Below are positions 100 through 56,783 of a stretch of 64,000 nucleotides of DNA, in pieces. The stretch is from Candidatus Iainarchaeum sp. GTDB taxonomy: Archaea; Iainarchaeota; Iainarchaeia; Iainarchaeales; UBA10219. Both the position numbers and the translations under genes were made by a program. Every line of letters begins with the position of its first letter. The first letter of the stretch is position 1. Location of the stretch: contig JAGVWE010000007.1 in the NCBI GenBank assembly GCA_018304425.1, positions 1-64,000 on the forward strand, given 5' to 3'. The notes beneath the pieces are model-generated. The model was not told the DNA's origin. It made no database searches and saw only the letters and a list, made by a program, of their open reading frames with translations.

Positions 100-100
100 T

Positions 101-27768: not shown

Positions 27769-27793
27769 GGAAGAATAAAAGCTTTATGGGGAG

Positions 27794-39279: not shown

Positions 39280-41157
39280 TCAGGCGCTGTCATCGCCTTT
39301 CCCACTTTCCTGGGTTTTCTGCGCCTTCTGCCGGGCAAACATGTCCCGGATTTCCTTGGTGGAAGTGGCTTCCTCGGCCTTCTTGTCCGTGCGGAAGGAA
39401 ACCAGGCGCGGGAATCGCAACGCGTATCCCGGCTTGCCGGCTTCCCGGCCGCAGGCATGCACCGGGCTGCGCGTGATTTCGTCGGCGCGCACCTCGATGA
39501 CGTGCACGGGCTCGGTCCACACGTCGGGTTCAAGGCCGGACTCCACGCGCGCGGGCTTCCGGTTGGCCTTGATTTTCTTCAAGCGCTCCTCCCATTCCGC
39601 GAGCTGGGCCTCGCTCAAGCCCGTGCCAATCTTGGCGATGCTTTCAAAGCAATCCCTTTCCCCATTGTAGGCGGCGGCCAGCAAGGCCCCCAACCCGAAC
39701 CGGGTGCGGATGCCCTTCCCCTTGAAGTAACCGATGACCGCCAAATCCACGGAGTCCTGCAACTCGCCCTTGTAACTGCGCTTCAGTTTTATCCACGCGA
39801 ACTTCCTCGCACCCGCGATGTACTTCGCGTCCAGGTCCTTTGCGACGATGCCTTCCAGGCCCTGCTCGATGCACCGCGTGAAGAAAGCGTCCACGGCTTC
39901 CGGCTCCTTCGTCACTATCATCGGCGTCACGTCCAGCACCCCGCCCCTTTCCACGATTCGCTCCAGGGTTTTCCTGCGCTCCCGGAACGGCAAGGGCATG
40001 AGGTTTTTTCCGTCCACCATCATGACGTCAAAGGCGAACAACTTCAGCGGCAGCTCCTCGGAAGCCCTTTCGATGCCGTGCTTGCGCTTCCGCTGGATGG
40101 TCACCTGGAAGGGGAAGAACTCCCCGGTTTCCTCGTTCACCGCCAGGGCCTCCCCCTCGATGATGGCAGTCCGGGCCTTCAAGTGGGTTTTGACGCCTTC
40201 AATGACTTCGGGGAACATGGGTGTTACATTCTCGCTGCGGCGGCTGAAGATGCTTACCTCGTCTTCCCTCTTGTGCACCTGCAGCCGGAAACCGTCGAAC
40301 TTTCCCTCCACCATGCATTCCCCGAGCTTTTCCACGATTTCTCCCGCTGAAGGCAGCCGCTCGGCCAGGGTGGGCCGGATGGGCACGCCAGGCGTCAGCT
40401 CCACGGCATCCAGTCCCTTGAGGCCCTTTTCCTTGAGCAACCGCGCGATGTCCCCCAAATCCGAGTGAATGTTGTACTTTTCCTCGATGCGTTCCCGCAG
40501 CAGCTGCCGCACGCGCCGCTCGAACTCCTCTCCCCGCTTTTCCTCTTTTTTTTCCTTGAGCTCGGCCTCGATTTTTTCGGCGGCCCGCTTCTCCTTTGCC
40601 AAAAATTCTTTCGAGTAAACGACGGCCAAGGCGTCCATCAAGGTGGGGTCGCCGATGCCCAGCCGCATGGCCCCCAACGGAATCCTTGTGACGAATTTGG
40701 CTTCCAAGGGAGAGGCGCTGTTCAGGAGCTCGGCCAGCAGCTTGAGCTTCTGCTCCTGGCTACCGTGGCCCGAGGCCTTCGCGATGCGCAAAAAGTTGTC
40801 GTACACCTTTTCGACGGACAGTTTTTCGCGGAAGAGACTTTGCTGCCGCTTTTTTTCCGCGATTTCCTGGGCCACCAGGCCGAGGTCGCCGAGTTTCTGG
40901 AACCGCTTCCCGACTTCCTCCCGCGCGTACCCAGAAGTCATGGCCAGGGCCTCTTCCACGAGCTTCTCCCCCAAGCCGATGTCATAGCCCTTGAAGCCCG
41001 GGGCAATCTGGCCCTGGCACAGGTAAATGACCTTGGAGACAACGGCGGCATCGGTCTCCCGCTCCCGCAGGAGCCCCCCCAGCAGGGAAGTCATCTCCAG
41101 GCGCGAGGCAGCGGCCTCGATTCGCTCCCAGTAACCGGCCAATTTCCCGAATTCCAT
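39280..41157 (-). CDS. lig: ATP-dependent DNA ligase
   Basis: EGKFDGFR, EGIVAK, WIKLK, LRFPR. Confidence 0.96.
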   Translation of the reverse strand: MEFGKLAGYWERIEAAASRLEMTSLLGGLLRERETDAAVVSKVIYLCQGQIAPGFKGYDIGLGEKLVEEALAMTSGYAREEVGKRFQKLGDLGLVAQEIAEKKRQQSLFREKLSVEKVYDNFLRIAKASGHGSQEQKLKLLAELLNSASPLEAKFVTRIPLGAMRLGIGDPTLMDALAVVYSKEFLAKEKRAAEKIEAELKEKKEEKRGEEFERRVRQLLRERIEEKYNIHSDLGDIARLLKEKGLKGLDAVELTPGVPIRPTLAERLPSAGEIVEKLGECMVEGKFDGFRLQVHKREDEVSIFSRRSENVTPMFPEVIEGVKTHLKARTAIIEGEALAVNEETGEFFPFQVTIQRKRKHGIERASEELPLKLFAFDVMMVDGKNLMPLPFRERRKTLERIVERGGVLDVTPMIVTKEPEAVDAFFTRCIEQGLEGIVAKDLDAKYIAGARKFAWIKLKRSYKGELQDSVDLAVIGYFKGKGIRTRFGLGALLAAAYNGERDCFESIAKIGTGLSEAQLAEWEERLKKIKANRKPARVESGLEPDVWTEPVHVIEVRADEITRSPVHACGREAGKPGYALRFPRLVSFRTDKKAEEATSTKEIRDMFARQKAQKTQESGKGDDSA

Positions 41158-41271
41158 GCCATCATAGGGAGTCAATGGCCTTAAAACCCTTGTTCCCAGC
41201 CTTTCCAGGCCCCCAACAGGGAAATATTTAAATGGCCGAACTCCCTATATTCTGCCGTTCCAGGGACTTGC

Positions 41272-41918
41272 ATGGCGAAACCAGGTGCATCGGCCGAAGA
41301 CGGGGGCGGCAGCACTTCCACGGGCATCCAAGAATTGGCACCTTTCTGGGGGGCGGTTTCCCCAAGGGAGCCGTGGTCCTCGTGGCCGGTTCCTCGGGCA
41401 GCGGCAAGACCATTTTCTCGTTCAACTGGCTGTTCGACGGCGCCCGCAAGGGCGAGAACGGCGTCTACGTCACCTTCACCGAGCCCCTGTTCAAGTCCGT
41501 GAAAAACCTGGAAGTCATGGACTTCTACGACCGCAAGCTCATCGAAGACGAGACCATCAAGATCCTGGACATCCGCGACCTCTACGCCGAGCAAGGCTTC
41601 GACGCCCAGCGCATCCTGGACACCGTGGAACGGCAGGTCAAGGAAACCAACGCCAAACGCCTCTGCATCGATTCCGTGACCGCGATCGCCTACAACCTGG
41701 ACGACAAGGCGAAGACCCGGAAATTCATTTTCGTGGACTCGCTGTCCACGATGCTGATTTACAACCGGCCGGACGTCTTCGCGCGGTTCATCCACAGCGT
41801 GCTCGTGAAAATCCGGCTGAACTCCATCAGCGGCCTGCTGTTGTTCATTGAAACGCAGGCGGACCGGGAAGTCCGCGCCGAAATCGCACAGTTGTGCGAC
41901 AAGGTCCTGCGGGTCTAG
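41272..41918 (+). pseudogene. KaiC/RecA-like ATPase, frameshifted and apparently chimeric
   Basis: STGIQEL is in one frame and TFLGGGFPKG...GSSGSGKT in another (shift ~41338). Two consecutive Walker-B-like segments (CIDSVT, FVDSLST). Confidence 0.7.
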
Positions 41919-41924
41919 GGGCTT

Positions 41925-42317
41925 TCACCAGCCGTCTGTTTTGAGGTTTTTCACGCGGTCGAAATGTTTGCGGTTGTTGGTGACCAAGATGGCCTCATGG
42001 CATACTGCGATGGCCGCAATCATGAGGTCCAGTACTTCGAGGCGGTTCCCCTTGCGGATGAATTCTGCGTCGAGTAGGGCGACCTGTTCGGCGGCATCAA
42101 CTTCGAAGGGAAGCGGTTGTAGCGAGGCCAGGAATTTCCTCGCAAGGTCGAGGCTGGCAGGCGTGCCATACAGCCGCTCTCCAACCAGCACTTCGTATAT
42201 GTTGATGCAGGTAGTGGCGATTTCCTTGTCCTGCTCCGGTAGTTGCCGTAATTTTGCGGTCGCAGCCTCTTTTCCGCGAAGATAGGCGATGATGCAATCG
42301 GAGTCAAGGATTATCAT
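41925..42317 (-). CDS. vapC: PIN-domain VapC toxin
   Basis: ILDSD, DLMIAA, VTNNRKHF. Confidence 0.9.
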   Translation of the reverse strand: MIILDSDCIIAYLRGKEAATAKLRQLPEQDKEIATTCINIYEVLVGERLYGTPASLDLARKFLASLQPLPFEVDAAEQVALLDAEFIRKGNRLEVLDLMIAAIAVCHEAILVTNNRKHFDRVKNLKTDGW

Positions 42318-42558
42318 GCATTCTCGCCTGTCGTTTCCAGAATGATGCCGTCGAGTCTTTCCTCAGTCGCCTGTACAAGGCCAGCCGCTTTTCGGCTTCC
42401 TCATCGGTCATCGGGATGCTGCCGAAATACTTCATGAGGTCGGGTTGTTCCTTTTCCGCCAGCCGCTCGAGCAGGTCGCTGAAGCTCTCGCCTTCGTGCT
42501 TGGCCCTGATGAGCTTCTCATAGACCTTGCCCTTGATGGTAAGGGTTTTGAAGACCAT
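42304..42558 (-). CDS. vapB: VapB-like antitoxin (DUF217 type)
   Basis: KTLTIKGKVYEKL...GESFSDLL; IR TATGTTTAA-GG-TTAAACATA at 42561-42580. Confidence 0.85.
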   Translation of the reverse strand: MVFKTLTIKGKVYEKLIRAKHEGESFSDLLERLAEKEQPDLMKYFGSIPMTDEEAEKRLALYRRLRKDSTASFWKRQARMHDNP

Positions 42559-42692
42559 GCTATGTTTAAGGTTAAACATATATTTAATCCTTGCTTCCAT
42601 CCTTTTAAGCAACAAACTATTTTTAAGGCAATTGTCGTAATATTGGTGTGTTCGGAGAGTAGATTAATATAGCCATAAAGCAATATAGCTAT

Positions 42693-42941
42693 ATGGCTAC
42701 AACTACGTTGCGGGTGCAACTGCCGGAGGAAAAAGCCAGAAAGGTGCGGGAGCAAGCCATGAAACGCTTCGGTTATTCGAAAGGGGCCATCAGCAAGGCG
42801 CTCAATGTGGCCTTGGATGAATGGTTGGGGAAGGCGAAACCAGCCAAACCGCCTATCACGGCCAAGGACTTGTTAGGGCGGCTGAGTGGCGTAAAGGAGT
42901 CCTCCGTGGAACTCCAGCACAAGGCTCGTGACTATTGGTAG
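42693..42941 (+). CDS. vapB: RHH antitoxin
   Basis: Similar to 17423-17659 (RFGYSKGAISKA); SSVELQH motif. Confidence 0.75.
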   Translation: MATTTLRVQLPEEKARKVREQAMKRFGYSKGAISKALNVALDEWLGKAKPAKPPITAKDLLGRLSGVKESSVELQHKARDYW

Positions 42942-42949
42942 GCTGTGCC

Positions 42950-43354
42950 ATGTATTTGCTGGACACCAACATTTTTTTGGAAATCCTCCTCGATGGCGCA
43001 CGCGCCACCGAATGCCTGCGCCTGCTCTCCCTTTTGCAGGGCGAACGGCTGTCTGCGGTTGTTTCGAAGTTCGCGGTTTATTCGATTTGCCTGATTCTTT
43101 TCAGGAAAAAACAACCCGATCTGGCCCGGGATTTCCTGGCCTATCTGGATTCCCTTCCAACCCTGCAAATCCATGGGACCTCCCTTGAGGAGGATGCCGA
43201 AGCCTTCGCCAGCGCGGAGAAATTTGGCCTTGACTTTGACGACGGCCTGCAGTTTACGGTTGCCAAGCGCTTGAGCGTGGAAGCCATCGTCTCCTTTGAC
43301 CGGGACTTCGACAAGACCCCCTTGAAGCGCCTGGAGCCAAGTCAAATCCTTTGA
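42950..43354 (+). CDS. vapC: PIN-domain VapC toxin
   Basis: LLDTNIFLE, LDFDD, SFDRDFD. Confidence 0.9.
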   Translation: MYLLDTNIFLEILLDGARATECLRLLSLLQGERLSAVVSKFAVYSICLILFRKKQPDLARDFLAYLDSLPTLQIHGTSLEEDAEAFASAEKFGLDFDDGLQFTVAKRLSVEAIVSFDRDFDKTPLKRLEPSQIL

Positions 43355-43368
43355 CGAGAACCGCTGTT

Positions 43369-43533
43369 TCACTCGGCTTCCGTTTCCTGTCGTCTGACCC
43401 GAAGGAAGATGCCCGCCGCAATCAGGGCCGCGAGCGCCATCGTGAGTTCGTCGTACTCGGGGATGACGTTGAGGGTGTTGCGGCTGCCGAAGGCGCTGGT
43501 CGTGGTTGGACGGGAAAACCGCTCGTTTCCCAT
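43369..43533 (-). repeat. Orphan PEY-CTERM sorting-signal copy C (54-aa mini-ORF)
   Basis: MGNERFSRPTTTSAFGSRNTLNVIPEYDELTMALAALIAAGIFLRVRRQETEAE; 75/78 nt identical to the 3' end of 48316-52128. Confidence 0.85.
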
Positions 43534-43952
43534 ATCGTCAGTAAAACATTTGGCGGTGAAATATGACAGTCGAATATTCTGTTGAGCCCTGGTACGCGCT
43601 TGAAATGCCTGGCGTTCCCGGTCAACAGGGTTTCCCGGGCTTGGAGGGCAATGGCCGCAATCATGCAGTCCTGTGGTTCGATGGGTTGGCCGGTTTGCCA
43701 GAGTCCTTGCTGGATTTCGCCTGCCTCGTTTGCGGCTTGGGCATCCAATGGCAGGGCAGGCAGGGAGGAAAAGAGTTCGCGGACGCGTTGCCTTTCTTCT
43801 TTTCCGGCGCGGTGGAGGCTTTGAATGACTTCAAACACGGTGATAGCCGTCGTCAGCAACGGTTCGCCTTTTCGCTTCAACTCCTCCGCCTTGGCGGCCG
43901 CACCCTTTTCTCCCCTGATAAGGTCAATGACGTAGCTGGTGTCAAGAATCAT
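43422..43952 (-). CDS. vapC: VapC toxin with aberrant C-terminal read-through
   Basis: ILDTS, DCMIAA, TGNARHF; no stop at the usual position. Confidence 0.8.
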   Translation of the reverse strand: MILDTSYVIDLIRGEKGAAAKAEELKRKGEPLLTTAITVFEVIQSLHRAGKEERQRVRELFSSLPALPLDAQAANEAGEIQQGLWQTGQPIEPQDCMIAAIALQARETLLTGNARHFKRVPGLNRIFDCHISPPNVLLTIWETSGFPVQPRPAPSAAATPSTSSPSTTNSRWRSRP

Positions 43953-44185
43953 GGACGGAAGCCTTCCATGAGGGCGCGACTCCGCGCCAGGCCGGTGGCT
44001 CTCGACGCTTGCACGGCTTCCTCCACCGTTGCCGTGGTCTTCTTGGACAGTATGCCCGCGAATTTCGTCAAATCCGTTTTGTTGGTGAGCCTGCAAATCA
44101 CTTGGCTGAAGCTCTCCCGCGCTTTTTTGCTGGAGGCCAGGCGCTTATAGGCGTCCACCGTAATCGAAATCGTTTTCGTTGCCAA
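43949..44185 (-). CDS. vapB: VapB-like antitoxin
   Basis: TTG start; ATKTISITVDAYKRL...ESFSQVI; ATGA overlap with vapC. Confidence 0.85.
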   Translation of the reverse strand: MATKTISITVDAYKRLASSKKARESFSQVICRLTNKTDLTKFAGILSKKTTATVEEAVQASRATGLARSRALMEGFRP

Positions 44186-44261
44186 TCTCCCACCTACACA
44201 TACATACACATACGTGTATTTAAGGCTTTGGCTGGAAAAGTGGTCGCCCTCGTTTATGCCA

Positions 44262-44363
44262 TTAAACGGTTTTCCCGCGTTCCATGCGCCTAATCCATCC
44301 GAAGGCGAGCGCGGCCAGTAGTACGGTCAAGGCCAGCGTGTAGTCCTCGTATTCTGGGTTCAC
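44262..44363 (-). repeat. Orphan PEY-CTERM copy D (33-aa mini-ORF)
   Basis: VNPEYEDYTLALTVLLAALAFGWIRRMERGKTV*: motif, TM helix, basic tail. Confidence 0.75.
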
Positions 44364-44368
44364 CTCGG

Positions 44369-45148
44369 TTAATGCTTTTTCAGCCCATTTTTTTGAATCC
44401 GTTCTTCAATTTCTTTTTTCACTTGGGGAAAGGAAGGCAGCGGGCCGCCAACCAGCCCACCCAAGTCCCGTTCCCAACTGCCTTTTTTTTCGTCCACTTT
44501 GGCCCAGAAACCGTCTGGCGTGAACCGGAGCCCGGCATGCGCCATTTTCCTGCTTATGAGCCCCGGTTCGGCGGGCACGCCTCTTCGTTTCAGCAGGTGC
44601 CAGAGGTCGTAGACGTCCCTGGCCTTGTTTCTTTCATGGATTGCCCTGATTTTTTCGGCAAGGATTTCTTTTTCGTCCATGGCAAACAGATTGAATGGCC
44701 GGATCTCCCGATAAATCGGGGCATACGGAAACGTTTGAACGGGCAGCAGCACGCGTTCCCTCAAGCTGATGTTGACGGCAAGGGAGGTTAGGCTTTCCTT
44801 GCTGCCGTCGTAAAGCGGCCCCCTTGCCTGCACGTAAACGTTTGTGCTCCTTTCAAACGCTTCCACGGTTGCCTTCGCCTTTACGTCCAGCAAGCTGAAA
44901 AGGCCGGGTAACCGCGTAAAGAAATTTTTTGGCTTGAAGCCTTTTCCAGCCGTGAAGTCGAGGTCTTCGCTGAAACGGTCCAACTTGTACGCCTTGTATA
45001 GGCAGGTTCCGCCTTTAAAGACGAGCTTGCTCCCGAACTCCCGGTAAATGTTTATCAAGGCCAGGTCCTGCAGGTAATCCAATTCCGTGAGCCGGAGGCT
45101 GAGGCCCTTGAATTTTGCGACGGCCTGCAGTTCTTCACGCTTGAGCAT
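44369..45148 (-). CDS. AbiEii nucleotidyltransferase toxin
   Basis: FKGGT, RFSEDLDF, AEKIRA, RDVYDL. Confidence 0.92.
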   Translation of the reverse strand: MLKREELQAVAKFKGLSLRLTELDYLQDLALINIYREFGSKLVFKGGTCLYKAYKLDRFSEDLDFTAGKGFKPKNFFTRLPGLFSLLDVKAKATVEAFERSTNVYVQARGPLYDGSKESLTSLAVNISLRERVLLPVQTFPYAPIYREIRPFNLFAMDEKEILAEKIRAIHERNKARDVYDLWHLLKRRGVPAEPGLISRKMAHAGLRFTPDGFWAKVDEKKGSWERDLGGLVGGPLPSFPQVKKEIEERIQKNGLKKH

Positions 45149-45722
45149 GCAGCGCCTCCCGCAATTTTTTGGCCCAGCCCCTCGCCTTTTTCGCGTGAAG
45201 CAAAAGCCTGTCCCTGTTGATTTTCCGCTTGTTGTTTTTTATGATGTCCACGGCCTCGGCCAAAGACATTTTCCTGGTCGCCAAGGCGTCCACGATTGCT
45301 TTTTCTTTCTCGGCCAAGAAGATTTCCCGGCCCTGGTAGGTCGTCCGCTGGAAGCCGGTGAAGGCGGTTTCCTTGATTTTGATGAATTCAATCCGGGCGT
45401 TCCCATAGGAAACGATTTTTTTCTTCCTCTTCCGGGTCGTGATTACATGGATGGTGAACGGCAGTTGCTCCGTCAATTTATGGTAGTTTAACGCCGCCCA
45501 GCACGAGATATAACTTGGCCAGACGATCCATGACGCCACGAGGAATGAATCCGTTTCCAGCGTGTACTTGCCCTTCTCGATTTCGTGGAGGACGCCCGCC
45601 TTTTTCAGCCGGTGTGCGACGAGGTACGCGTAATCAATGCCTTTATGGAGCGTGTCGGCGAGGTCCCTGGCCGTAAAAACCGGGTACGGCTTTAATGCCT
45701 CCAGCTCCTTCTTTTTTATCAT
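45135..45722 (-). CDS. AbiEi antitoxin
   Basis: IEKGKY, PSYISCWAALNYHKLTEQLP, EKAIVD. Confidence 0.88.
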   Translation of the reverse strand: MIKKKELEALKPYPVFTARDLADTLHKGIDYAYLVAHRLKKAGVLHEIEKGKYTLETDSFLVASWIVWPSYISCWAALNYHKLTEQLPFTIHVITTRKRKKKIVSYGNARIEFIKIKETAFTGFQRTTYQGREIFLAEKEKAIVDALATRKMSLAEAVDIIKNNKRKINRDRLLLHAKKARGWAKKLREALHAQA

Positions 45723-45750
45723 TCCACCAACCTTATCAAAACTGATATGA

Positions 45751-46326
45751 TTAGCCGCCCAACAATTTATAAGGCTTTTCGCTGGTGTTGCCGCCTAATC
45801 CCTGCAAACGCCATGGCCGCCAGGATAACGGCCAGCGCCATCGTGAGTTCGTCGTATTCGGGGATGACGTTGAGCGTGTTGTGGCTGCCGAAGGCGCTGG
45901 TCGTGGTTGGACGGGAAAACCGCTCGTTTCCCATATCGTCAGTAAAACATTTGGCGGTGAAATATGACAGTCGAATATTCTCTTGGCGTTCCTGGTCAAC
46001 AGGATTTCACGGGCTTGAAGGGCAATGGCCGCAATCATGCAGTCTTGTGGTTCGATGGGTTGGCCGCTTTGCCAGAGCCCTTGCTGGATTTCGCCTGCCT
46101 CATTCGCGGCTTGGGCATCCAATGGCAGGGCGGGCAGCGAGGAAAAAAGTTCTTGGACGCGTTGTTTTTCTTCTTTTCGGGCACGGTGCAGGCTTTGAAC
46201 TACTTCGAACACCGTGACGGCCGTCGTCAGCAACGGTTCGCCTTTCTTCTTCAATTCCTCGGCTTTGGTGACCGCACCCTTTTCCCCCCGAATCAGGTCA
46301 ATGACATAGGTGGTGTCAAGAATCAT
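45751..46326 (-). pseudogene. vapC: VapC paralog of 43422-43952 with C-terminal deletion and read-through
   Basis: Near-identical to the other copy but lacks HFKRVPGLN (27 nt). Confidence 0.7.
45767..45934 (-). repeat. Orphan PEY-CTERM copy B (55-aa mini-ORF)
   Basis: MGNERFSRPTTTSAFGSHNTLNVIPEYDELTMALAVILAAMAFAGIRRQHQRKAL*. Confidence 0.85.
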
Positions 46327-46559
46327 TGTTGGAGGCCTTCCATTAGGGCGCGACTGCGTGCCAGGCCGGCAGCCCTTGACGCTTGCACGGCCTTTTCCAT
46401 GGTGGCCGCGGTTTTCTTGGACAAGATGCCCGCGAATTTCGTCAAATCCGTTTTGTTGGTGAGCCTGCAAATGACTTGGCTGAAGCTTTCCCGTTCCATT
46501 TTACTAGAAGCCAGGCGCTTGTAGGCGTCCACCGTAATCGAAATGGTTTTCGTCGCCAA
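46323..46559 (-). CDS. vapB: VapB-like antitoxin (paralog of 43949-44185)
   Basis: Near-identical protein; shared upstream CCTACACATACATACACATACGTGTATTTAAGG promoter/operator. Confidence 0.85.
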   Translation of the reverse strand: MATKTISITVDAYKRLASSKMERESFSQVICRLTNKTDLTKFAGILSKKTAATMEKAVQASRAAGLARSRALMEGLQQ

Positions 46560-46650
46560 AGCTATCACCTACACATACATACACATACGTGTATTTAAGG
46601 ATTTGGTTGAAACCGCCTTCTCTGCCCAGTCTGCCCGGTTTGCCCAGGCC

Positions 46651-46896
46651 TCACCGGTCTTTCCCGCGTTCCCTGCGCCGGATGTGCGCGAACGCCATCG
46701 CCACCAGGGCCACGGCTAGCAGCAGGGTTAGGTCATCGTACTCGGGGATGACGTTGAGGGTGTTGGGGCTGCAGGCGCTCGTCGTGGTGTAGAGGTCGTC
46801 GGCCACCACGCGGATGTAATAGTCGCCGCTGGTGATGTCGCAGTTCCAGGCGTACACGCAGTTGATGTCTTGAGGTCGCAGACGGGTGGAGACCAT
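46651..46896 (-). repeat. Orphan C-terminal fragment with PEY-CTERM, copy A (81-aa ORF)
   Basis: CVYAWNCD...YYIRVVADD...SACSPNTLNVIPEYDD-TM-RRRERGK; 42 bp (46736-46777) identical to 48392-48433. Confidence 0.9.
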
Positions 46897-48272
46897 CAGC
46901 CGAATGTTTCTTCAAGATCCTTCAAGTCATAGAGGTCGGCGTTTTTTTCGTCGATCTTTTTTTCCTTGAATGATTTCGCGAATAGGCAATACCGTTCCGT
47001 TCTGTGCTCTTTGAACCAGCTTACTTTTTCCGCTTTTTGTTTGAGTTTTCGCAGCAGGCTCTCGGCATCGACTTTTTCTTTCCACTTGCATTCGCAGAAG
47101 AGTGCGCTTTTTTTTGCCTTGCTAAGGCCCACGATGTCTATTTCTTCGCCTTTATCCCACCAGCTGCCGATGAGGTAGTCCTTGAAGGCGGCATTTTTGG
47201 ACAGCCGGTCTCGGCACACCTCTTCGAACCCTTTGCCGATGAAGGCGTTCAGTTCGGGCTCTATTTTCTCGTTTAAGAGGTTTTTCTGCTTGCGTTGTTC
47301 TACGTAATCCATGTTTTCAAACACGAAGCGGAACCAGAAGCGGAAGAAAGGGTCTTTCAGTTTGTAGATGCCTTTCCTCGATTTTTCCTTTCGCTCAGTA
47401 ATGGGCACGGCACGCTCGACGAGGTCAAGGTCAATCAATACGCCAAGGTATTTGTTTACGGTGCCTTTTTCCAGGCCCGTGTCGTTGACGATGCGCCCGA
47501 TGCCGGTGTTGCCCTTTGCGATGGCGGCCACGATGGAAAAATAGTTTCTCGGCTCGTCCAGTTCCTCCCGCAGCACGAACATCGGGTCCCGGAACAGGAA
47601 GGACTGCTTTTCCAGGATTTTTTCCCCGATATTGGAAACCAGCGTTTTCGTGTAATCAAATTCAAGCAGGTAGGCAGGGGTGCCACCGAGCACCGCGTAG
47701 TAACTGATTTGTTTTTTGATGTCCATCGTTTTCGGGAAGAAATGGCGGGCTTCGCTGAAATCAAGGGGGTCAAGCTTCATTTGATGTGTTCGCCTCCCGT
47801 AGAGGGGACTCTTATAGCCGAGGAGTTTTTCCATCATGGAGACGCTGGAGCCGCATAAGACGAAGAGGCAGGGCATGTGTTGGAGTGCCTTATCCCAGTG
47901 GTCTTGCAGAATGGAGGGCAGCGAGGGGTTAGCTTGTACGAAGTAAGGGAACTCGTCCAGGAATACGGCGAACGGTTTTTGCTTCAGTTTTTCGGCGAAG
48001 TAGGAGAAAACGGAGTCGAAGTTGCCAAAGGGCCTTGAATTCAGTTGTTCATCGTTGAAAAACTCGGCGCAGGCCCTGCTGATATGCTCCAATTGCTTGT
48101 GTTCGGATTCCTGCCGGCCCAGCAGGTAAACAGCGGGATGATTTTTTGTGAATTCCCTTAGTAACTCGGTTTTGCCGATTCTACGTCTGCCGTATACTAC
48201 GGCTAGCACTGGCTTTTTTGCCGACCAAAGCGTTTCAAGCAACTGTAGTTCCTTCACCCGGTTGTAAAACAT
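46896..48272 (-). CDS. Archaeal AAA ATPase with wHTH and C-terminal DUF234/PD-(D/E)XK domain
   Basis: FYNRVKEL, YGRRRIGKT, DEFP, GGTPAYL, EIDIV...ECKW. Confidence 0.9.
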   Translation of the reverse strand: MFYNRVKELQLLETLWSAKKPVLAVVYGRRRIGKTELLREFTKNHPAVYLLGRQESEHKQLEHISRACAEFFNDEQLNSRPFGNFDSVFSYFAEKLKQKPFAVFLDEFPYFVQANPSLPSILQDHWDKALQHMPCLFVLCGSSVSMMEKLLGYKSPLYGRRTHQMKLDPLDFSEARHFFPKTMDIKKQISYYAVLGGTPAYLLEFDYTKTLVSNIGEKILEKQSFLFRDPMFVLREELDEPRNYFSIVAAIAKGNTGIGRIVNDTGLEKGTVNKYLGVLIDLDLVERAVPITERKEKSRKGIYKLKDPFFRFWFRFVFENMDYVEQRKQKNLLNEKIEPELNAFIGKGFEEVCRDRLSKNAAFKDYLIGSWWDKGEEIDIVGLSKAKKSALFCECKWKEKVDAESLLRKLKQKAEKVSWFKEHRTERYCLFAKSFKEKKIDEKNADLYDLKDLEETFG

Positions 48273-48315
48273 AGTAAACTCTAAAGTATACTACTTATGA
48301 GAATACTATTTAAAC

Positions 48316-51300
48316 CTATGGTTTGGCCGCCCGTCGCACGCGCAGGAAGATGCCTGCCGCGATCAGGGCCGCGAGCGCCATCGTGATTTCGTCGTACTCG
48401 GGGATGACGTTGAGGGTGTTGGGGCTGCAGGCGTTGGTTTTGGTGAACCCGTCGTCGGCTTCGACGCGGAGGTAGTAGTTGCCTATCGTTACGTCGCAGG
48501 TCCAGGAATAGAGGCAGCTGGTGTCATCCGGGTTGCAGGCCGCCGTGGTCTGGCTGATGTTGCCGATGATGAGGTTGGTGTTGTTGGCGCAGGTGCTGGC
48601 GTCCGTGCCGTAATAAATGCTGAAGTTGACGTCGTCGAGGTCGGCATCGTCGGCTGTCCATGTAATGTCGTAGGGGGTTGGAACGGTGCAGCTCTGCCCG
48701 CTGCCCGTGGGCGCCACGCTGCTCACGGCCGGCGCATCGTTGGCGCTGATGAGGACGCTGCCGGACTGCTGCTTGATTTGCTTCTTGTTGAGGACACTGT
48801 TCCAGATGAAGACTGAGTCTAAGTCTATATGTGCAAAACCAAGATTATCTAATCTTTGCCCAAATATGATTTTTTGGTCTTCATCACTCATCGTGGTATT
48901 ACCCGAACTGGCCCTAAGAACGCCATTAACATACAATCTTCCGCCAACAGTAGTATTCGCCGTCCCTGCGACATGTATCCAGGTATTTTGAGGGAGTGTA
49001 TCTACTGCAGTCAACAAGTTAGCGGTGCCCGACGCACCATATACTAAAACAATATCCTGAGGGAAAGCATCAGCAGCGGTTCTAAAATCGAAAGGTGCAG
49101 GAAAGTTATTATTCGTTGATCCATTTTTTTCGACCATGGGATTATATACTGCAGATTGTGCTCTTACCCAATATGCTACAGTAAATGCCGTGCTAAGACT
49201 AGAAGTCAAATCTGCAATCTCGACTTTGTCATCTACCCCATCAAATTTCAAGTCAGTGTATTCAGCCGGTGTCATAGGGGTGTTCGTGTCCCATCTCGGG
49301 CCGGAAAGCAGTTCCCCATGCTTGTTGCCAGACGTTGCATCCCAGGCCCGGATGGCGTTGCTGTCGTCTTTGTTGAAGTTCCACGCGCTGACCAGCCCGC
49401 TTTCCGTGCCCATTAGTTGTTTGGGCGTGCTGTCTTGTCCAATGTTCTTGGCTTTGTCGTAGACGTTGACGTCGATGAAGTAGTTTTGGTCTGCGAGGCC
49501 AGCGGGGTTCCAGTCGTAGAAGCATAGCACGTTCTGGTCGAAGAAGTAACGGGGTTCGCTGGCGTAACTGGTTCCGCCGGGCGCACTGCAGTTGGCGTCG
49601 TTGGTGGGGTTGCGGGCGAGTTGGGCGAGGTTGACGTCGGCAGCGAATTTGCCTGACGTGTTGAAGTCGGCCGCGTAGAGGCTCGCGTAGAGGCTTGCAT
49701 AGAGTTCGTCTTCTTCGCGGAAGTTGCCACTAGCTGGGAGGGGAGCGTAGGAAGTGTCTCTCACCGTGAACTTGACGAGGATGTTGCCGTCCGTTTTCTG
49801 GTAGTGCGAGCCGCCTTCCGGCCAAAGCAGGTTGGCGTCCGGTCCGTTCGTGGTATGCGTGCCACAGTAGTTGTTGCAGCGGTTTATGTAGCCGCTTTCT
49901 TGGTGGATGAAACAGGTGTTGCCGCCCGAGCATTGCCCGGAAGCAGTGCAGGCCGGGTTGCAGCCCCATTGGTTGATGAAGTCCGTGGGCCAGGCGGACG
50001 TGATGTTGGCGGTGGTGGCCGCAATGTTGAAGTCGATGTCAGCATAGTAGGTGGCTACGCCTAATGTGCCGGTACTGATATTGCAGGGCGCGAACAGGAG
50101 GTTGAAGTCGTACTCGGTGCCGCCCGTGTAGCTGCCGGCACAGGTGATGTTCGCGGTGTTGTCGGGGGCGCTCGAATAGGTGCGTGAACAGCCGGTGGGT
50201 AGCAGGGGCGCGCTGACGAGGGCAAACGTTTTGTAGGGGATGTCGGGGGAGTCAATTAGGGGGTCGTTGCAGGTGTAACCGACTTGTTGGGGCGCCGGTA
50301 CGAGGGGCGTGGCATGGTTGCCGCGTATGGGGGTGAGGAGCGATGTCGCATAGTGGGGCTCGATTTTGAAGCCTAGGTTGCCGCTGACATTGGGCATGAC
50401 TTTGAGTCTCACGAGGTATTGGTGGGTGTTGGTGTCCGTGGTTGTCAGGTTGAAGGTGAAGTTGGAGTCGGGACTGCAGGCCATGTTGTTGCCGTCTCCG
50501 GCGCGGCCCACGAGGTCGCTGGGGCAGGTGGCGGGCGCGTTGGCGCCGTTGAGGTCAATGCTCGCGTAGAGGACGGCCGCGTTCCAGTCATCAATCCAGT
50601 CCATGGGGTACATGCGCCACGCGCCTCCCGAGGTCCCGCCGTCGGCTGAAAGGTTGAGGTCTTCGGCCTGGATGTCGGTTGTTCTGGGATGGTTTGCCCA
50701 GCGGCAGGGTTTGACGGTGATTCTTCCAGCGTACGGGGTGCCGCCGGCCAAAGTAGTAGTGGCGTTGCCGTCGTCTCCAACGTAATTGGTGTCGGTGAGC
50801 GTCCAGTGGGGGTTGCGGAGGCCGGCCGTGTTGCCCGTGGTTCCAAACCAGCCGTTGGGGCTGAGGGGGCTGTCAATGAAGTCAACGATTTCCCAGCGGG
50901 GAAGGTTGAGGTCGATGGGCTCCCACAGTGCCCCCCCGAGTATGGGGTCTGAGAAGCATTTGTTGCCCGCGAAGGCGGTGGAATTGTTTGGTACGTAGCT
51001 AATGGGTTTGCCTTGTCTTACGCCTGCGTCCACGTTGTGGTCGCCGTACGGCGAATCCCATTTTCCGACGGCGCCCGCCGAATAGCGCAAGCCAAAGTTG
51101 TTGTCGATGCTGCGGTGGATGTTGCTCATGATGTTGTAGTCGATGACGTAATTGGTGTCCAGGATGAAGGCCGTGTCGGGCGTGCAGTAGGGGAGTTCCC
51201 CGTTGGTGTCGATTTCGCCGTTATTGGCGTTTCCGGCGTACACCATGCCTCCCATGCTGGTGTGGCTGACGAGGGAGCGGGTGCCGTTCTCGACTTTGAC

Positions 51301-52128
51301 GCAGTTGATGTTGTTGCCGGTCAATTCGAGTCCATGGTAGATGGCGTTCACGTTCCAGTCATCGATGAAGTCCAGGGTGTAGGGTTGGGCACCGCAGTTG
51401 CCGAGGTTGCTCTGGTCGTAAAAACGCACGTCCAGGCGCTGGGGGTGGTTCACGAACCGGCATGGAATGGCGGTAGTCCATTTCCCCGCGCATCCGATGA
51501 TTCCCCCGGGGCACATCGGGGGCGGGGTGCCACAGGCTGTGCAAGTATTCGGGTTGGGGCAAATCAGTCGTTCGGCGAGGTAGCTGGTGGTGGGGGTCGT
51601 GGAGGTGCAACCGCATCCTTGTCCGGGGGGAACGCAGGCACCGAACGCGGTCTTGGCGCCGCCGATGCAGGCGCCGCCTCCGAGGTTAGCCGTCGTGTTG
51701 ACCGCCCATCGGGGCCCGACTCCGGACTTGTTCTCGTCGTTGATGCATTGCCAGCCGACTTCATAGGCCAAGGTCTTGCTGGGGCCGTTTCCACAACTCC
51801 AGATTGCGTTGAAGCTGGGACATGTTTCGATGCTGATGTTCTCGTCGTAGCTGGGATCAAGCCCCAGGGCTTCGGTCATTTCGAGTTCGAAGGCCCCGGC
51901 CGCGCGTTGGGTTAAGGGTCCAAGGCCTTGGTCTAGGCCGGGGGCATAGGCGTCGATGGGAGTGCAGGAGTCAACTCCTCCCGCCGTCGTCGCACACGGG
52001 GTTCCGGCGCCTCCCGAGTTCGGGCCGCCCCAAGTCAATTCCATGGCGTGTCCGGTGAGGATGGCGGATAGGGCCAGGGCGAGCGCCACCAGCGTCCATC
52101 CGGTCGGCCATCGGATCTGTTTACCCAT
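48316..52128 (-). CDS. Large Cys-rich surface protein with LamG domain and PEF-CTERM-like (IPEY) sorting signal
   Basis: Signal peptide; internal repeats; LamG (GLVSAWNF, FDGVDD, WIHVA, LYVNG); ends VIPEYD-TM-RVRR. Confidence 0.9.
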   Translation of the reverse strand: MGKQIRWPTGWTLVALALALSAILTGHAMELTWGGPNSGGAGTPCATTAGGVDSCTPIDAYAPGLDQGLGPLTQRAAGAFELEMTEALGLDPSYDENISIETCPSFNAIWSCGNGPSKTLAYEVGWQCINDENKSGVGPRWAVNTTANLGGGACIGGAKTAFGACVPPGQGCGCTSTTPTTSYLAERLICPNPNTCTACGTPPPMCPGGIIGCAGKWTTAIPCRFVNHPQRLDVRFYDQSNLGNCGAQPYTLDFIDDWNVNAIYHGLELTGNNINCVKVENGTRSLVSHTSMGGMVYAGNANNGEIDTNGELPYCTPDTAFILDTNYVIDYNIMSNIHRSIDNNFGLRYSAGAVGKWDSPYGDHNVDAGVRQGKPISYVPNNSTAFAGNKCFSDPILGGALWEPIDLNLPRWEIVDFIDSPLSPNGWFGTTGNTAGLRNPHWTLTDTNYVGDDGNATTTLAGGTPYAGRITVKPCRWANHPRTTDIQAEDLNLSADGGTSGGAWRMYPMDWIDDWNAAVLYASIDLNGANAPATCPSDLVGRAGDGNNMACSPDSNFTFNLTTTDTNTHQYLVRLKVMPNVSGNLGFKIEPHYATSLLTPIRGNHATPLVPAPQQVGYTCNDPLIDSPDIPYKTFALVSAPLLPTGCSRTYSSAPDNTANITCAGSYTGGTEYDFNLLFAPCNISTGTLGVATYYADIDFNIAATTANITSAWPTDFINQWGCNPACTASGQCSGGNTCFIHQESGYINRCNNYCGTHTTNGPDANLLWPEGGSHYQKTDGNILVKFTVRDTSYAPLPASGNFREEDELYASLYASLYAADFNTSGKFAADVNLAQLARNPTNDANCSAPGGTSYASEPRYFFDQNVLCFYDWNPAGLADQNYFIDVNVYDKAKNIGQDSTPKQLMGTESGLVSAWNFNKDDSNAIRAWDATSGNKHGELLSGPRWDTNTPMTPAEYTDLKFDGVDDKVEIADLTSSLSTAFTVAYWVRAQSAVYNPMVEKNGSTNNNFPAPFDFRTAADAFPQDIVLVYGASGTANLLTAVDTLPQNTWIHVAGTANTTVGGRLYVNGVLRASSGNTTMSDEDQKIIFGQRLDNLGFAHIDLDSVFIWNSVLNKKQIKQQSGSVLISANDAPAVSSVAPTGSGQSCTVPTPYDITWTADDADLDDVNFSIYYGTDASTCANNTNLIIGNISQTTAACNPDDTSCLYSWTCDVTIGNYYLRVEADDGFTKTNACSPNTLNVIPEYDEITMALAALIAAGIFLRVRRAAKP

Positions 52129-52236
52129 CCATTCCCCTCAATTCAACCCCTATACTAATAGTGTTTGTCTAATATAATACGGATAGGATTAAATTGTTTG
52201 CCTTTAAAAGCATTTCCGGCACCCAATGGTTTCAGG

Positions 52237-52309
52237 GGGCGTGTAGTCTAGTCTGGTAGGATACCAGCTTTGGGAGCTGGCGACCTCGGTTCAAATCCGG
52301 GCACGCCCA
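52237..52309 (+). tRNA. tRNA-Pro(TGG)
   Basis: Cloverleaf; CCAGC-TTTGGGA-GCTGG; TTTAAAA box upstream. Confidence 0.95.
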
Positions 52310-52418
52310 TCCTTTTAAAGCCGCTTTTTTTCTTGGCTGGGCTGGGGGAGCCGCTTCTAGTGCCAAGCCTGCTTTGTCTATCAGGGCAGGGCCTGCACGA
52401 AGATTATTATGCCTGGTG

Positions 52419-53624
52419 TTAAAACCGGATGGCGGGTTCTTTTTCCGTGAGCCATTCTTGGAGGTTCTTGTTTTCTATTTCGATGTTTTCTTCGGTGCTT
52501 TTGCTTGTCTTTCCGGGGTAGAGGATGGTTGCTTTCAGGGCCTTGTTTTTTTTGCAGAATTCCATCAGGCCTTCCTTTTCCCTTTTTGGCAGGTTTTCGG
52601 AGTAACAAACGTTTATCGGCAACAGGCTCGTTTTTTTCTTTGCGACGAAATCGACTTCCCCGGCGTTTTTCCAGTAATAGGCCTCGAATCCCCGGTGCTT
52701 GAGTTCGATTGCAACTGCTGCCTCGGCAAGCCTGCCCCTGTCTTCGGTGAATGACTTTGAAGCGTATTGCTGCATTCCCAAGTCAAAGGCAAAGACCTTT
52801 CTGGGCTTTGAAAGGGATTCCTTTAGGGAGAACGAAAAGAACGGGACCTGGAAAACCAGGAAGGAGGCTTCCAGGTAACCCAGGAACTGTCTTATCGTGT
52901 CGTACGACAAGCCAAGGGCGACCCGCATTTTTTTCAGGCTTACTTGTTTTCCGGAGTTCGTCAACAGGTAAAACGCAAGGTTTCGTAAAGCCGCAGGGTC
53001 TCTCACGTCATGCCGCGTAATTATGTCTTTAATCAAGGCGAGTTCGAAATAGGACTCCAACAATTTTTCTTTTTTTTCGGGGTGCAAGGCGACTTCAGGG
53101 TAGCCCCCAATCTTGAGGTAGGCGTTAAGGCCTTTCTTGGTTACGCGCTGAAACTCGCTGAAAGAAAAAGGCAGTACTTGAAAACCAATCCCCCTTCCAC
53201 CCAAAGAAGTCGCAAACTCGCTGCTCAAGAGCTTTGCGGAAGAACCCGTGACTATTACCTGGCACTGCCGTGTGTCGACGGCCCTTCGGACCCATTTCTC
53301 CCATCCCTCGACTAATTGCACTTCATCGAAGACAAGGGTGTCTTTCGCCTTCAAGCCGTCTGCAAAAGCGTCCAGTAAATCGGTGTTCAACGAGCCCACA
53401 AGCTTCGGGTCTTCCAGGTTGACGTACCGTGTCAACGTGTTCTCCGGCATTTTTTTCAGAAGCCTTCGGGCGACAACGGATTTCCCTGAACGCCTGGGGC
53501 CATACAAGAAAACGACGTTGCGACTGCCCACGAAGGGCAGTATGTCATCTTCAACGTCTCTTTTGAAGGTAGTCTCTTTGACGGCCCATTTTTCCAGAAG
53601 CTCGCCTAATTCCCTTGAAAGCAT
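52419..53624 (-). CDS. AAA+ ATPase (AAA_14 plus DUF4143-like)
   Basis: GPRRSGKS, DEVQ, TGSS, GGYPE, EVDFV. Confidence 0.9.
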   Translation of the reverse strand: MLSRELGELLEKWAVKETTFKRDVEDDILPFVGSRNVVFLYGPRRSGKSVVARRLLKKMPENTLTRYVNLEDPKLVGSLNTDLLDAFADGLKAKDTLVFDEVQLVEGWEKWVRRAVDTRQCQVIVTGSSAKLLSSEFATSLGGRGIGFQVLPFSFSEFQRVTKKGLNAYLKIGGYPEVALHPEKKEKLLESYFELALIKDIITRHDVRDPAALRNLAFYLLTNSGKQVSLKKMRVALGLSYDTIRQFLGYLEASFLVFQVPFFSFSLKESLSKPRKVFAFDLGMQQYASKSFTEDRGRLAEAAVAIELKHRGFEAYYWKNAGEVDFVAKKKTSLLPINVCYSENLPKREKEGLMEFCKKNKALKATILYPGKTSKSTEENIEIENKNLQEWLTEKEPAIRF

Positions 53625-53653
53625 GAAAAACCGGTGCGCAAACGAATATATAA

Positions 53654-53677
53654 AGGGTTACGTTACAACGTAACCCT
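53654..53677. promoter_or_regulatory. Perfect 11-bp inverted repeat between two TATA-like boxes
   Basis: AGGGTTACGTT-AC-AACGTAACCCT flanked by TATATAAA on both sides, upstream of the ATPase. Confidence 0.65.
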
Positions 53678-53741
53678 ATATAAAGGCTCAAAAAACGCTG
53701 TTGGCGGGTTTAAACCCCCAAACAGGATGTAAGCCGGGCCA

Positions 53742-53910
53742 GGCCTATGCAACGCATAGGCCGTTTCCCCGAAGACTTTGTCTTCGGGGCCTCGTCTCCC
53801 AACAGGGAGACAAGGTCGCAGGCCTTTTGTAAAAAGGCGTGCGAGGCGAAGCCGAGCCAGTTCCATGCCGTGCATGGAACCTTTTCGCAGGCCTTTTGTA
53901 AAAAGGCCTT
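53742..53910 (+). repeat. Train of short palindromes (REP-like) upstream of tRNA-Pro
   Basis: At least six adjacent hairpins; TCGCAGGCCTTTTGTAAAAAGGC occurs twice (53816, 53885). Confidence 0.75.
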
Positions 53911-54033
53911 GGGCGTGTAGTCTAGTCTGGTAGGATACCAGCTTTGGGAAAGCCTTTTTTGCTTGCGCAAAAAACCCTTGGGAAAAGGGCTTCCAGCGTG
54001 CTGGCGACCTCGGTTCAAATCCGGGCACGCCCA
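53911..54033 (+). tRNA. tRNA-Pro(TGG) second copy with 50-nt intron (53949-53998)
   Basis: Exons identical to 52237-52309 except position 38; relaxed BHB motif. Confidence 0.85.
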
Positions 54034-54072
54034 TCATAGTATAGTTCCAATCAGCTTGTCCTTGTGGGTAGC

Positions 54073-55332: not shown

Positions 55333-55455
55333 ACTATACTAGCCCCCCAACAGCTATTTAAATCTTTCTTTTAAAAGAAAGAATTATGGCAAAATTGTTC
55401 TCTTAAAAGAATGCTTTTGCCTGCGGCCATTAGTCTGGCCCGGCAGGCTGCCCCA

Positions 55456-55497
55456 CTTTGGGAGCTGGCGACCTCGGTTCAAATCCGGGCACGCCCA
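55456..55497 (+). repeat. 3' half of tRNA-Pro(TGG), att-like direct repeat
   Basis: 42 bp identical to the 3' end of 52237-52309; 5' half absent except TAGTCTGG at 55431. Confidence 0.9.
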
Positions 55498-55517
55498 TTC
55501 GCCTTCTATTTTCCCTC

Positions 55518-56642: not shown

Positions 56643-56710
56643 GCCTGTGCCCCGAACAGAATAAATAAAGCGGGGTTATAAAGTTTTCCCTGGCTAAAAT
56701 CGTGGGGCCA

Positions 56711-56783
56711 GGGGAGGTAGTCTAGTCTGGCAGGATACCAGCTTGGGGTGCTGGCGACCCGAGTTCAAATCTCGGCCTCCCCA
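56711..56783 (+). tRNA. tRNA-Pro(GGG)
   Basis: Cloverleaf; CCAGC-TTGGGGT-GCTGG. Confidence 0.95.

Follow-up and report, generated by a model that had tools for sequence, protein, structure and literature searches.

In the 64,000-nt stretch of DNA analysed here (the window; positions 1 to 64,000 of contig JAGVWE010000007.1 from Candidatus Iainarchaeum sp.), a gene encoding a 1270-aa surface protein is followed on the minus strand by a row of small toxin-antitoxin (TA) and defence cassettes, and the 3' end of the surface gene, which encodes a putative sorting signal, recurs between these cassettes. With about even confidence, we read this array as an accretion island, to which cassettes were added by repeated homology-driven recombination at the conserved 3' end of the surface gene. 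A first-pass annotation had proposed that the sorting-signal end acts as a landing site in the manner of a tRNA 3' end. The idea of a landing site is favoured by the gene-end copies, by the insertion relative to the synteny of related genomes and by the mosaicism of the copies, but the crossover points, which are not uniform, speak against a precise, tRNA-like attachment (att) site.

Organisation of the cassette array

Five copies of the tail of the surface gene lie in direct orientation on the minus strand, one terminal in the gene itself and four as orphans. Open reading frames (ORFs), Pfam and PADLOC agree with the order of cassettes given in the first-pass annotation except at its far end, where two more vapBC pairs had been placed on the minus strand: one of these pairs lies on the plus strand and its antitoxin has no Pfam match.

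The surface gene (48316..52128; ORF of 1270 aa with a hydrophobic N-terminal leader and a Laminin_G_3 domain, PF13385, 2.4e-17) is followed by the cargo of the first cassette, an AAA ATPase gene (46896..48272) with Pfam matches to ATPase_2 and DUF234 (1.4e-28 and 3e-26) and a match of the DUF234 ATPase to the PADLOC candidate system PDC-S27 (1.6e-55). Orphan copy A (46651..46896) comprises about 40 codons of the ectodomain, the core described below and the tail DLTLLLAVALVAMAFAHIRRRERGKDR, and its ATG overlaps the stop codon of the ATPase gene (ATGA). The cargo of cassette 2 (45979..46612) consists of a promoter block, vapB (46568..46323) and a vapC gene with PIN domain (from 46326), as recognised by Pfam. 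Copy B (45767..45982, ORF 45934..45767) is made up of a hairpin/pre-core block, the short gene-derived peptide TTTSAFGSH, the core and the tail ELTMALAVILAAMAFAGIRRQHQRKAL. Cassette 3 (44369..45722) encodes AbiEi (45722..45135) and AbiEii (45148..44369), both detected by Pfam and by PADLOC (7.7e-33 and 4.1e-61, respectively). Eight nucleotides past the AbiEii stop codon begins the degenerate copy D (44262..44363), comprising NPEYED and the tail DYTLALTVLLAALAFGWIRRMERGKTV only. Cassette 4 (43581..44237), again with a promoter block, vapB (44209..43949) and vapC/PIN (from 43952) according to Pfam, is about 88% identical to cassette 2, the promoter block being identical at 30 of 30 positions. 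Copy C (43369..43584, ORF 43533..43369), with hairpin/pre-core block, core and the tail ELTMALAALIAAGIFLRVRRQETEAE, closes the array. All these features are on the minus strand.

Cut at the cores, the array reads: gene; tail0-ATPase-preA; tailA-vapBC-preB; tailB-AbiE-(D); tailD-vapBC-preC; tailC. The cassettes measure 0.9-1.7 kb, the ATPase unit 1656 nt from core to core. With promoters read from the sequence, they are independently promoted TA or defence units punctuated by tail copies. A putative TATA-like box TTTAAATA directly after the stop codon of the surface gene would serve the ATPase gene, another seems to overlap the stop codon of copy B and would serve the AbiE cassette, and each unit appears to open with a tail whose stop adjoins the TATA-like box of its cargo.

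Size, uniform orientation and TA/defence content of the cassettes match those of integron arrays. Archaeal integrons and clusters of attC sites lacking an integron integrase (CALINs) have been reported, and TA systems account for 10.5% of the annotated cassette proteins (PMC9668308). We nevertheless regard it as extremely unlikely that the array is a CALIN with the tail copies as attC sites. The attC reading is largely refuted by ten single-strand DNA folds (both strands of the five copies), which gave z-scores between -0.61 and +0.71. No imperfect palindrome or inverted repeat shared among the five copies was found, and the RYYYAAC/GTTRRRY pair was not seen by eye in the array sequence. Furthermore, the cassettes appear to have their own promoters, and the array has no PF00589 match closer than 43 kb, no IntI-specific model having been run.

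Core sequence and boundaries of the copies

In the window there are four occurrences of the 30-nt core TCGTAYTCGGGGATGACGTTGAGSGTGTTG (at 48392, 46736, 45852 and 43451), compared to none in 100 shuffles. A genome-wide search for it, which the first-pass annotation had suggested, returned no site beyond these four in the 1.48-Mb genome (7 contigs, 92.6% complete), and blastn of 41900-48600 against the whole genome revealed no further copies. All four orphans annotated before are real copies of the gene end; copy D, however, lacks the 30-nt core. The PEY motif, the hydrophobic helix, the basic end and the stop codon are kept in all five tails, as had been claimed.

In the functional gene end the core is located at 48392..48421 (minus strand). 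Main gene and copy A are identical here over 37 nt (48389-48425) and diverge immediately past the core; upstream of the identity block they share 77% of their nucleotides over 137 nt, corresponding to about 40 codons of the last ectodomain. The core of copy B contains two synonymous changes. Copy C is 88% identical to the main gene at the nucleotide level in the helix part of the tail, and its pre-core is not main-like. Copies B and C have a block of about 170 nt in common, consisting of a non-gene hairpin block, about 28 nt of pre-core, the core and the first seven tail codons, beyond which they diverge completely. The pre-core blocks of these two copies are identical at 89 of 90 nt, though the adjoining vapBC genes are only about 88% identical, and the gene-derived pre-core of both carries a 3-nt insertion destroying a conserved Cys. 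Folded as RNA, the hairpin/pre-core blocks of B and C in their window form were no better than shuffles (z +1.19 and -0.28); the form found in metagenome contig L021, described below, contains a perfect 13-bp inverted repeat, with a z-score of only -1.82. Tails A and D, each followed by one of the two homologous vapBC units, show 53-60% identity within the helix and 77% at the end. Taken together, the copy parts and the cargo shared in this way indicate a circularly permuted unit, running from tail end through promoter, vapBC, hairpin, pre-core and core to tail start.

The extent of homology upstream of the core differs between the copies, from about 130 nt in copy A to 28 nt in copies B and C and 0 nt in copy D, and the similarity breaks off right after the core for main gene and copy A, 20 nt further for copies B and C. 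Crossover points that vary in this way speak for exchange driven by homology, and against an att site with the precision of a tRNA gene. The core may also be conserved at the nucleotide level beyond what the protein would require. In the block encoding ACSPNTLNVIPEYD, one of 14 codons differs between main gene and copy A, compared to six of 18 conserved-residue codons upstream (P ~0.03), which is suggestive, not strong.

The locus in related genomes

We compared the regions upstream of the DNA ligase gene in 20 relatives; none of 40 relatives belongs to the same family. In 12 of the 20 regions the ligase gene has a tRNA-Pro gene at a distance of 0.2-4.5 kb, tRNA-Pro(TGG) and tRNA-Pro(GGG) are adjacent in four relatives, and wherever the neighbours were read, proC, proA and proS follow the tRNA-Pro genes as they do in the backbone of the window. 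The distance from ligase gene to tRNA-Pro(TGG) is 11 kb in the window genome (G000), with 4.4 kb between its two tRNA-Pro genes. The synteny in the relatives identifies the 7141 nt between the stop codon of the G000 surface gene and the ligase gene as an insertion at the 3' end of the gene. The cassettes have a GC content of 0.48-0.55 compared to 0.60-0.64 in the ligase and pro genes.

The part of this insertion between the array and the ligase gene (41232..43354, mixed strands) is likewise absent from the relatives' interval between ligase and tRNA-Pro genes. According to Pfam it contains a PIN gene with a small upstream gene (42693-43354, plus strand), a VapB+PIN pair (42615..41925, minus strand) and a gene for a KaiC-like ATPase (41232-41918, plus strand). 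We detected no tail copies in this block.

In one genome of another family (G053), two adjacent small surface genes with PEF tails are situated between a tRNA-Pro-like gene and the ligase gene (L034, G053:C1, 8271-9694), the last of them stopping 115 nt from the ligase gene. Their tails consist of CE(S/A)AVVPEFD, a helix and a basic end, and the end of one of these genes agrees with that of the main gene at 43% over 47 aa (E 0.002 in a single comparison). The arrangement is likely to represent the ancestral state of the locus, and as such tailed genes occupy this spot, a PEF/PEY-tailed surface gene there is probably older than the cassettes.

Two PEF-tailed genes side by side might also indicate that the orphans descend from a former row of PEF/PEY-tailed genes, of which insertions and deletions removed all but the 3' ends. 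The differing lengths of upstream gene sequence in the orphans would agree with this, as would copy A, which reads as a coherent gene end. Decay of tandem paralogs appears quite unlikely to us, however. The remnants in A and D start 0-8 nt past the stop codon of a cargo gene and those in B and C directly after the hairpin block at the 3' end of vapC, there is no other ectodomain debris, and the 37-nt identity of main gene and copy A would need an additional gene conversion. Furthermore, the junction with non-gene sequence is the same in B and C, which rules out independent truncation of the two.

Support for the assembly and variants of the copies

An independently assembled metagenome contig (L021, 4965 nt) from the same population is 98.9-99.9% identical to the window and shows the matching order from the ATPase gene to the start of copy C, that is, across three cores. 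Logan contigs (k=31) of the runs X1, X6, X7 and X10 were aligned to 41000-56900 and between them cover all segments of the array; they end at the cores and none bridges one. Uncovered parts in X6, X7 and X10 reflect low depth, not absence. In X1 the contig depth is even (about 10-14) over all segments of the array. The ORF of copy A is present on 14 contigs and that of copy C on nine, the longest contig comprising 164,884 nt.

Repeats of 30-170 nt could have led to a chimeric or misordered contig, and the break of the Logan contigs at every core as well as two gaps of 27 and 54 nt relative to L021, both next to repeats, might be seen as signs of it. With the order of L021, the even depth in X1 and the long contigs bearing copies A and C set against them, we consider an assembly artefact highly improbable.

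The two gaps concern the vapC genes of the array, neither of which has a stop codon in the window; both read on through the copies in another frame. Compared to L021, 54 nt are missing from the 3' end of vapC in cassette 2 (window 45981/45982, L021 2523-2576) and 27 nt in cassette 4 (window ~43575, L021 95-121). The additional nucleotides of L021 complete the vapC genes (...KRVPGLNIEEY-stop) and provide a perfect 13-bp inverted repeat (AAAACATTTGGC ... GCCAAATGTTTT) with its left arm. Both gaps end at one same base, just before the block common to copies B and C. The 54-nt form was also found in X7, and as a loose end in X1, and the form of vapC in the window is either a real allele or a consensus error.

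Further forms of the copies, which point to exchange among them, were detected as short ORFs in other assemblies. P0004 corresponds to copy A with a C-type patch (FGSRNTLNA). As A and C have no more than 8 identical nt in common at its first switch, P0004 is not a k-mer chimera and represents either true exchange or an intermediate form. P0009 belongs to the C type, with the His of B and a new substitution, and P0007 is copy C with one extra codon. In X6, the functional tail of the surface gene has an allele with six changes within 23 nt (48360-48382; EITLALAALIT vs EITMALAALIA) on a contig that ends at the core, compared to one change in 688 nt of the adjoining ATPase gene; the tail is thus a local hotspot of variation.

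Surface protein and sorting signal

The surface protein ends in ...ACSPNTLNVIPEYD-EITMALAALIAAGIFLRV-RRAAKP. In a six-frame scan of the whole genome for P-E/D-aromatic followed by a helix and a basic end, this long ORF and the four orphans were the only hits; the regular-expression scan thus found one full-length carrier and not several substrates sharing the signal. Orthologs were detected by word-based and exhaustive protein searches. These are P0001 (...NTLNVIPEYDEITMALAALMAAGIFLRVRR..., 1801 aa, 76% identity over the C-terminal region), P0010 (...TLQIIPEYDALSLLAAVALAGLAFARMRK..., 2275 aa, 54%) and P0011 (...TIHIIPEYDFIALSLAILAALGIVLRR..., 435 aa, 49%). Motif, hydrophobic helix and basic cluster are present in these three proteins as in all five copies. 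IPEYD followed by helix and basic end is therefore conserved within a small family of Iainarchaeota-like surface proteins of very large size. The tails fall into two classes, with main gene and copy C resembling P0001 and copies A, B and D resembling P0010. As both classes are functional in orthologs and all five tails keep helix and basic end, each orphan looks like a once-functional gene end.

A joint within Logan contigs of X6 and X7 (48728 to 50811; the shorter side measures 22 nt) drops 2082 nt inside the surface gene. The module number of the surface gene may vary between strains; the ortholog P0001 (1801 aa) has a repeated module. This joint and a second one (42105-43924, with 30 other letters between) are both weakly anchored and were not used.

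In the PEF-CTERM/archaeosortase C signal, the extreme C-terminus consists of a Pro-Glu-aromatic motif, a helix and a basic end, in this order. The tails of the array have the same three parts, and the search for an archaeosortase proposed in the first-pass annotation yielded one gene of the exosortase/archaeosortase family, located on G000:C1 and encoding a 303-aa membrane protein (TIGR04178, 30.9 bits at a cut-off of 23; PF09721, 25.3 bits). Unlike the PEF-CTERM signal, the motif of the array tails is IPEYD, it has a single full-length carrier in the genome, and the sortase is weakly ArtC-like, its best subfamily being archaeosortase C (TIGR03762) with 23.2 bits, far under the cut-off of 100. 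None of the curated CTERM models of NCBIfam was matched above its cut-off in a search up to E = 1, and PEF-CTERM was not matched at all. The best models were JDVT-CTERM (14.7 bits, cut-off 27), GPS-CTERM (14.3 bits, cut-off 28), IPTL (11.8 bits) and PGF (10.8 bits). The tails of relatives read VPEFD in G053 and MPDYF in G094. The term "PEF-CTERM-like" denotes a resemblance with partial support, not a demonstrated membership.

Alternatively it might be that the orphans are no mere scars but are expressed as mini-proteins, i.e. tail-anchored PEY peptides with the N-terminus outside, and retained for a function, acting for instance as archaeosortase substrates or decoys. All four are open from core to stop with helix and basic end kept, copy A even has its ATG overlapping the ATPase stop, and the variant copies in other assemblies are in frame. 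These variants were, however, found as ORFs, and frame-shifted ones would escape such a search. The orphans have no signal peptide, copy D could start only at a GTG two codons before PEY, the conserved Cys is lost in B and C, and in the window the vapC frames cross both of these copies. Expression as mini-proteins is in our view very unlikely.

Proposed recombination at the gene end

According to the reading preferred here, small self-promoted modules (a PDC-S27-type ATPase, vapBC, AbiE and again vapBC) would have arrived on DNA carrying a copy of the gene end, either as circles excised from similar arrays or as fragments from related strains with different alleles of this gene. Crossing over within or close to the core of about 30-37 nt, which encodes (ACSP)NTLNVIPEYD, would have inserted each module, providing the gene with a complete new PEY-helix-basic tail and stranding the previous end downstream as an orphan. 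The anchor of the protein might be swapped in this way, as the first-pass annotation had suggested. The resulting units would have the form tail - promoter - cargo - short pre-core - core. The crossovers would be homology-driven, of Campbell type or homology-facilitated, and would not depend on a dedicated site-specific enzyme. The copies would go on interacting by gene conversion and unequal crossover, and the TA cargo probably accounts for the persistence of the modules. What we infer here is in which order the events took place, what form the incoming DNA had and which enzyme acted; anatomy, insertion, mosaicism, identity of the cores and variants of the copies are observed as described above.

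To account for the array, a whole unit must have been inserted at a core at least once, be it that all four units were inserted serially at the core of the gene, or that the AbiE unit entered an orphan core between duplicated vapBC units. With variable boundaries, gene-conversion tracts and no integrase, exchange by homology is more plausible than the action of a precise site-specific enzyme.

Several observations weigh against such an accretion by homology. With 30-37 nt, the core offers little length for homologous recombination, and the test on synonymous sites is modestly significant only. The order of events cannot be derived uniquely from the array, displacement combined with one segmental duplication fitting nearly as well. 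A 78-aa ORF on a 1496-nt contig (P0005) speaks for the preferred reading in joining preA, core and tail0, the junction that would be expected from an ATPase unit circularised or tandemly duplicated by crossover at the core, but the 37-nt repeat exceeds k=31 and a de Bruijn assembly at low coverage could have created it. No junction of a skipped cassette or of a circle was present in X1, X6, X7 and X10, whose k=31 contigs break at the cores and could not show one, and no strain with another number or order of cassettes was found. Outside this population the arrangement was found in none of the lineages searched. A tail profile run on 196 genomes of the order gave a strong match in G000 only, others being weak, and no tail fragment was present near VapC homologs at 29 loci of other genomes (30 were fetched, one being G000's own). 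Short matches among 1.84 billion protein representatives came from this population only. A scan with NTLNVIPEYD, back-translated as a degenerate pattern, gave no hits in genome contigs or viral contigs and L021 alone among metagenome contigs, and the search for related loci in genome contigs based on P0001 returned no usable locus.

A more far-reaching proposal is a DPANN cassette system which resembles integrons yet is structurally unrelated to them and uses the sorting-signal coding sequence as its recombination site. Mini-cassettes of about 0.9-1.7 kb, each with a replacement tail and one defence or TA module, would circulate between strains as circles and be captured by a trans-acting recombinase or by short homology, whereby the anchor would be diversified and the tRNA-Pro units described below would represent a second target. 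We regard such a system as improbable.

The tRNA-Pro array and the search for an integrase

On the other side of the surface gene, a tRNA-Pro(TGG) gene (52237-52309, Rfam) is followed by a gene for an AAA_14/DUF4143 ATPase (52419-53624, minus strand; PADLOC PDC-S01, 1.2e-92), by a second tRNA-Pro(TGG) with 50 additional nucleotides, either an intron or an insert (53911-54033; Rfam tRNA, 51.6 bits), by a second AAA_14/DUF4143 ATPase gene (54073-55332, minus strand; PDC-S01, 5.3e-101) and by a 42-nt 3' fragment of tRNA-Pro (55456-55497). A scan of 41000-57000 with Rfam gave three tRNA-Pro genes only. The two PDC-S01 ATPases are 31% identical and thus not recent duplicates. Copies of tRNA-Pro around single ATPase genes are the textbook mark of integration at tRNA genes, with elements that here comprise one gene each and no integrase. 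A palindromic GGCCTTTTGTAAAAAGGC motif occurs twice at 53790-53905, just upstream of the second tRNA-Pro, and a VIT1 gene follows the tRNA-Pro-bounded ATPase array, which lies between tRNA-Pro(TGG) and tRNA-Pro(GGG) (array region 52237-56784). Taken as a whole, the DNA between 41.2 and 56.7 kb forms a defence island growing outward on both sides of the intergenic region between surface gene and tRNA-Pro.

The tRNA-Pro array next door keeps an alternative alive in which accretion at the gene end was site-specific as well. The core would then correspond to the identity segment of an att site recognised by a tyrosine integrase, either one that acts in trans or one since lost, the units would be integrase-less remnants like cis-mobilizable elements (CIMEs) carrying replacement ends, and the tRNA-Pro fragments would reflect the same kind of event. 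The exact block of 30-37 nt between diverged arms, the regenerated target and the displaced ends in direct orientation would be expected in this case, as would the 42-nt tRNA-Pro fragment and the second tRNA-Pro flanking single ATPases, a classic integrase signature. The principle of the regenerated target underlies Islander (PMC4383910), rpsI, rpmG and fda have tandem CIMEs of 1.2-13 kb at their 3' ends (PMC7563491), and the genome does contain tyrosine recombinase genes. We nevertheless consider site-specific accretion rather unlikely. Homology boundaries and breakpoints vary between the copies, instead of showing a fixed crossover and uniform boundaries, and the reduction of four units to 0.9-1.7 kb each would amount to four separate events of decay.

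Moreover, an integrase is present neither in nor beside the island. As stated in the first-pass annotation, no recombinase is adjacent, the nearest PF00589 match being 43 kb away. The genome has three such matches, a XerA-like gene on contig C1 and the two halves of one integrase gene at the C1/C7 junction, the latter gene (window 1-513) being split by a TnpA gene of the IS200/605 type of insertion sequence. No serine recombinase (PF00239) and no Cas1 were matched in the genome, 92.6% complete, nor was a matching tyrosine or serine integrase found in any unit of the array or elsewhere in it. Contig C1 (reverse; G000:C1:1-1500) and contig C7 overlap by 99 identical nt, and the integrase gene spans this junction. 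The adjoining part of the window (300-27800), bounded at its end by tRNA-Ile (27793-27868), consists mostly of ORFs without a Pfam match and is possibly an integrated element; a repeat of a tRNA-Ile fragment belonging to it was not found.

Relation to known systems

That this arrangement has not been described before, as the first-pass annotation put it, is too strong a claim. In the open-access literature searched we found no description of sorting-signal copies between cassettes, but tandem accretion of CIMEs and the orphan arrays of Rhs and contact-dependent growth inhibition (CDI) loci are close precedents.

The 3' ends of protein-coding genes such as rpsI, rpmG and fda carry tandem accretions of CIMEs and integrative elements in Streptococcus salivarius/thermophilus (PMC7563491). 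CIMEs are integrase-less units from about 1 kb, bounded by direct repeats which copy the 3' end of the target gene. They leave the target gene intact and follow each other in rows of two to three (four in our case), and the cargo often serves adaptation or defence. In the present array, too, each unit is flanked by direct repeats of the target 3' end and the target is regenerated. Unlike those elements, the array has no integrative and conjugative element, integrative mobilizable element or integrase as partner and resides in a DPANN archaeon. Its repeats span the entire coding segment of the sorting signal, differ in their boundaries and show exchange in mosaic fashion, and its units are tiny and restricted to TA and defence genes.

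In Rhs/CDI loci, displaced C-terminal fragments lie downstream of the main gene and recombine with it (PMC3967940). They share with our locus the orphan ends without start or export signal behind a large surface or secreted gene. Part of the conserved upstream sequence is retained in them, as it is in copy A with its about 40 codons, and the chimera of main and orphan Rhs genes formed after duplication would find a parallel in P0005, itself possibly an assembly artefact. The displaced part there is a variable toxin tip with its immunity gene, whereas the array described here has a membrane anchor with a sorting signal and, between the copies, unrelated TA and defence genes, namely VapBC, AbiE and an ATPase. 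The homology measures 30-170 nt here and about 500 nt there.

Genomic islands at tRNA genes are marked by a regenerated gene and a displaced 3' fragment (Islander, PMC4383910). Regenerated target and displaced fragment recur in our array, and literally so at tRNA-Pro (52237-55497). Compared to these islands, the target of the cassettes is a protein-coding sorting signal, there is no integrase, and the boundaries of the fragments are not uniform. Integron arrays and CALINs, archaeal ones among them (PMC9668308), also have small co-oriented cassettes rich in TA and defence genes, a repeated element of about 100 nt between them and an integrase that is often off the contig. The repeat of our array differs in having no attC-like hairpin and in being coding sequence copied from the adjacent gene, and the cassettes appear to have promoters of their own.

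Taken together, we regard the locus as a variant of accretion at att sites, as with CIMEs, or of orphan arrays of the Rhs type. It defines an IPEYD variant of the PEF-type sorting tail, and its orphan sorting-signal ORFs are traps for annotation.

DPANN archaea have tiny genomes with few recognisable enzymes of mobile elements, and how they acquire and retain defence genes is poorly understood. The locus shows a concrete route, in which a conserved gene end, and with it the adjoining tRNA, anchors stacked defence and TA modules while the gene is repaired each time. If the process is driven by an enzyme, its recombinase has still to be found. If it is driven by homology, any conserved coding segment shared between strains can be a landing pad without a dedicated integrase.

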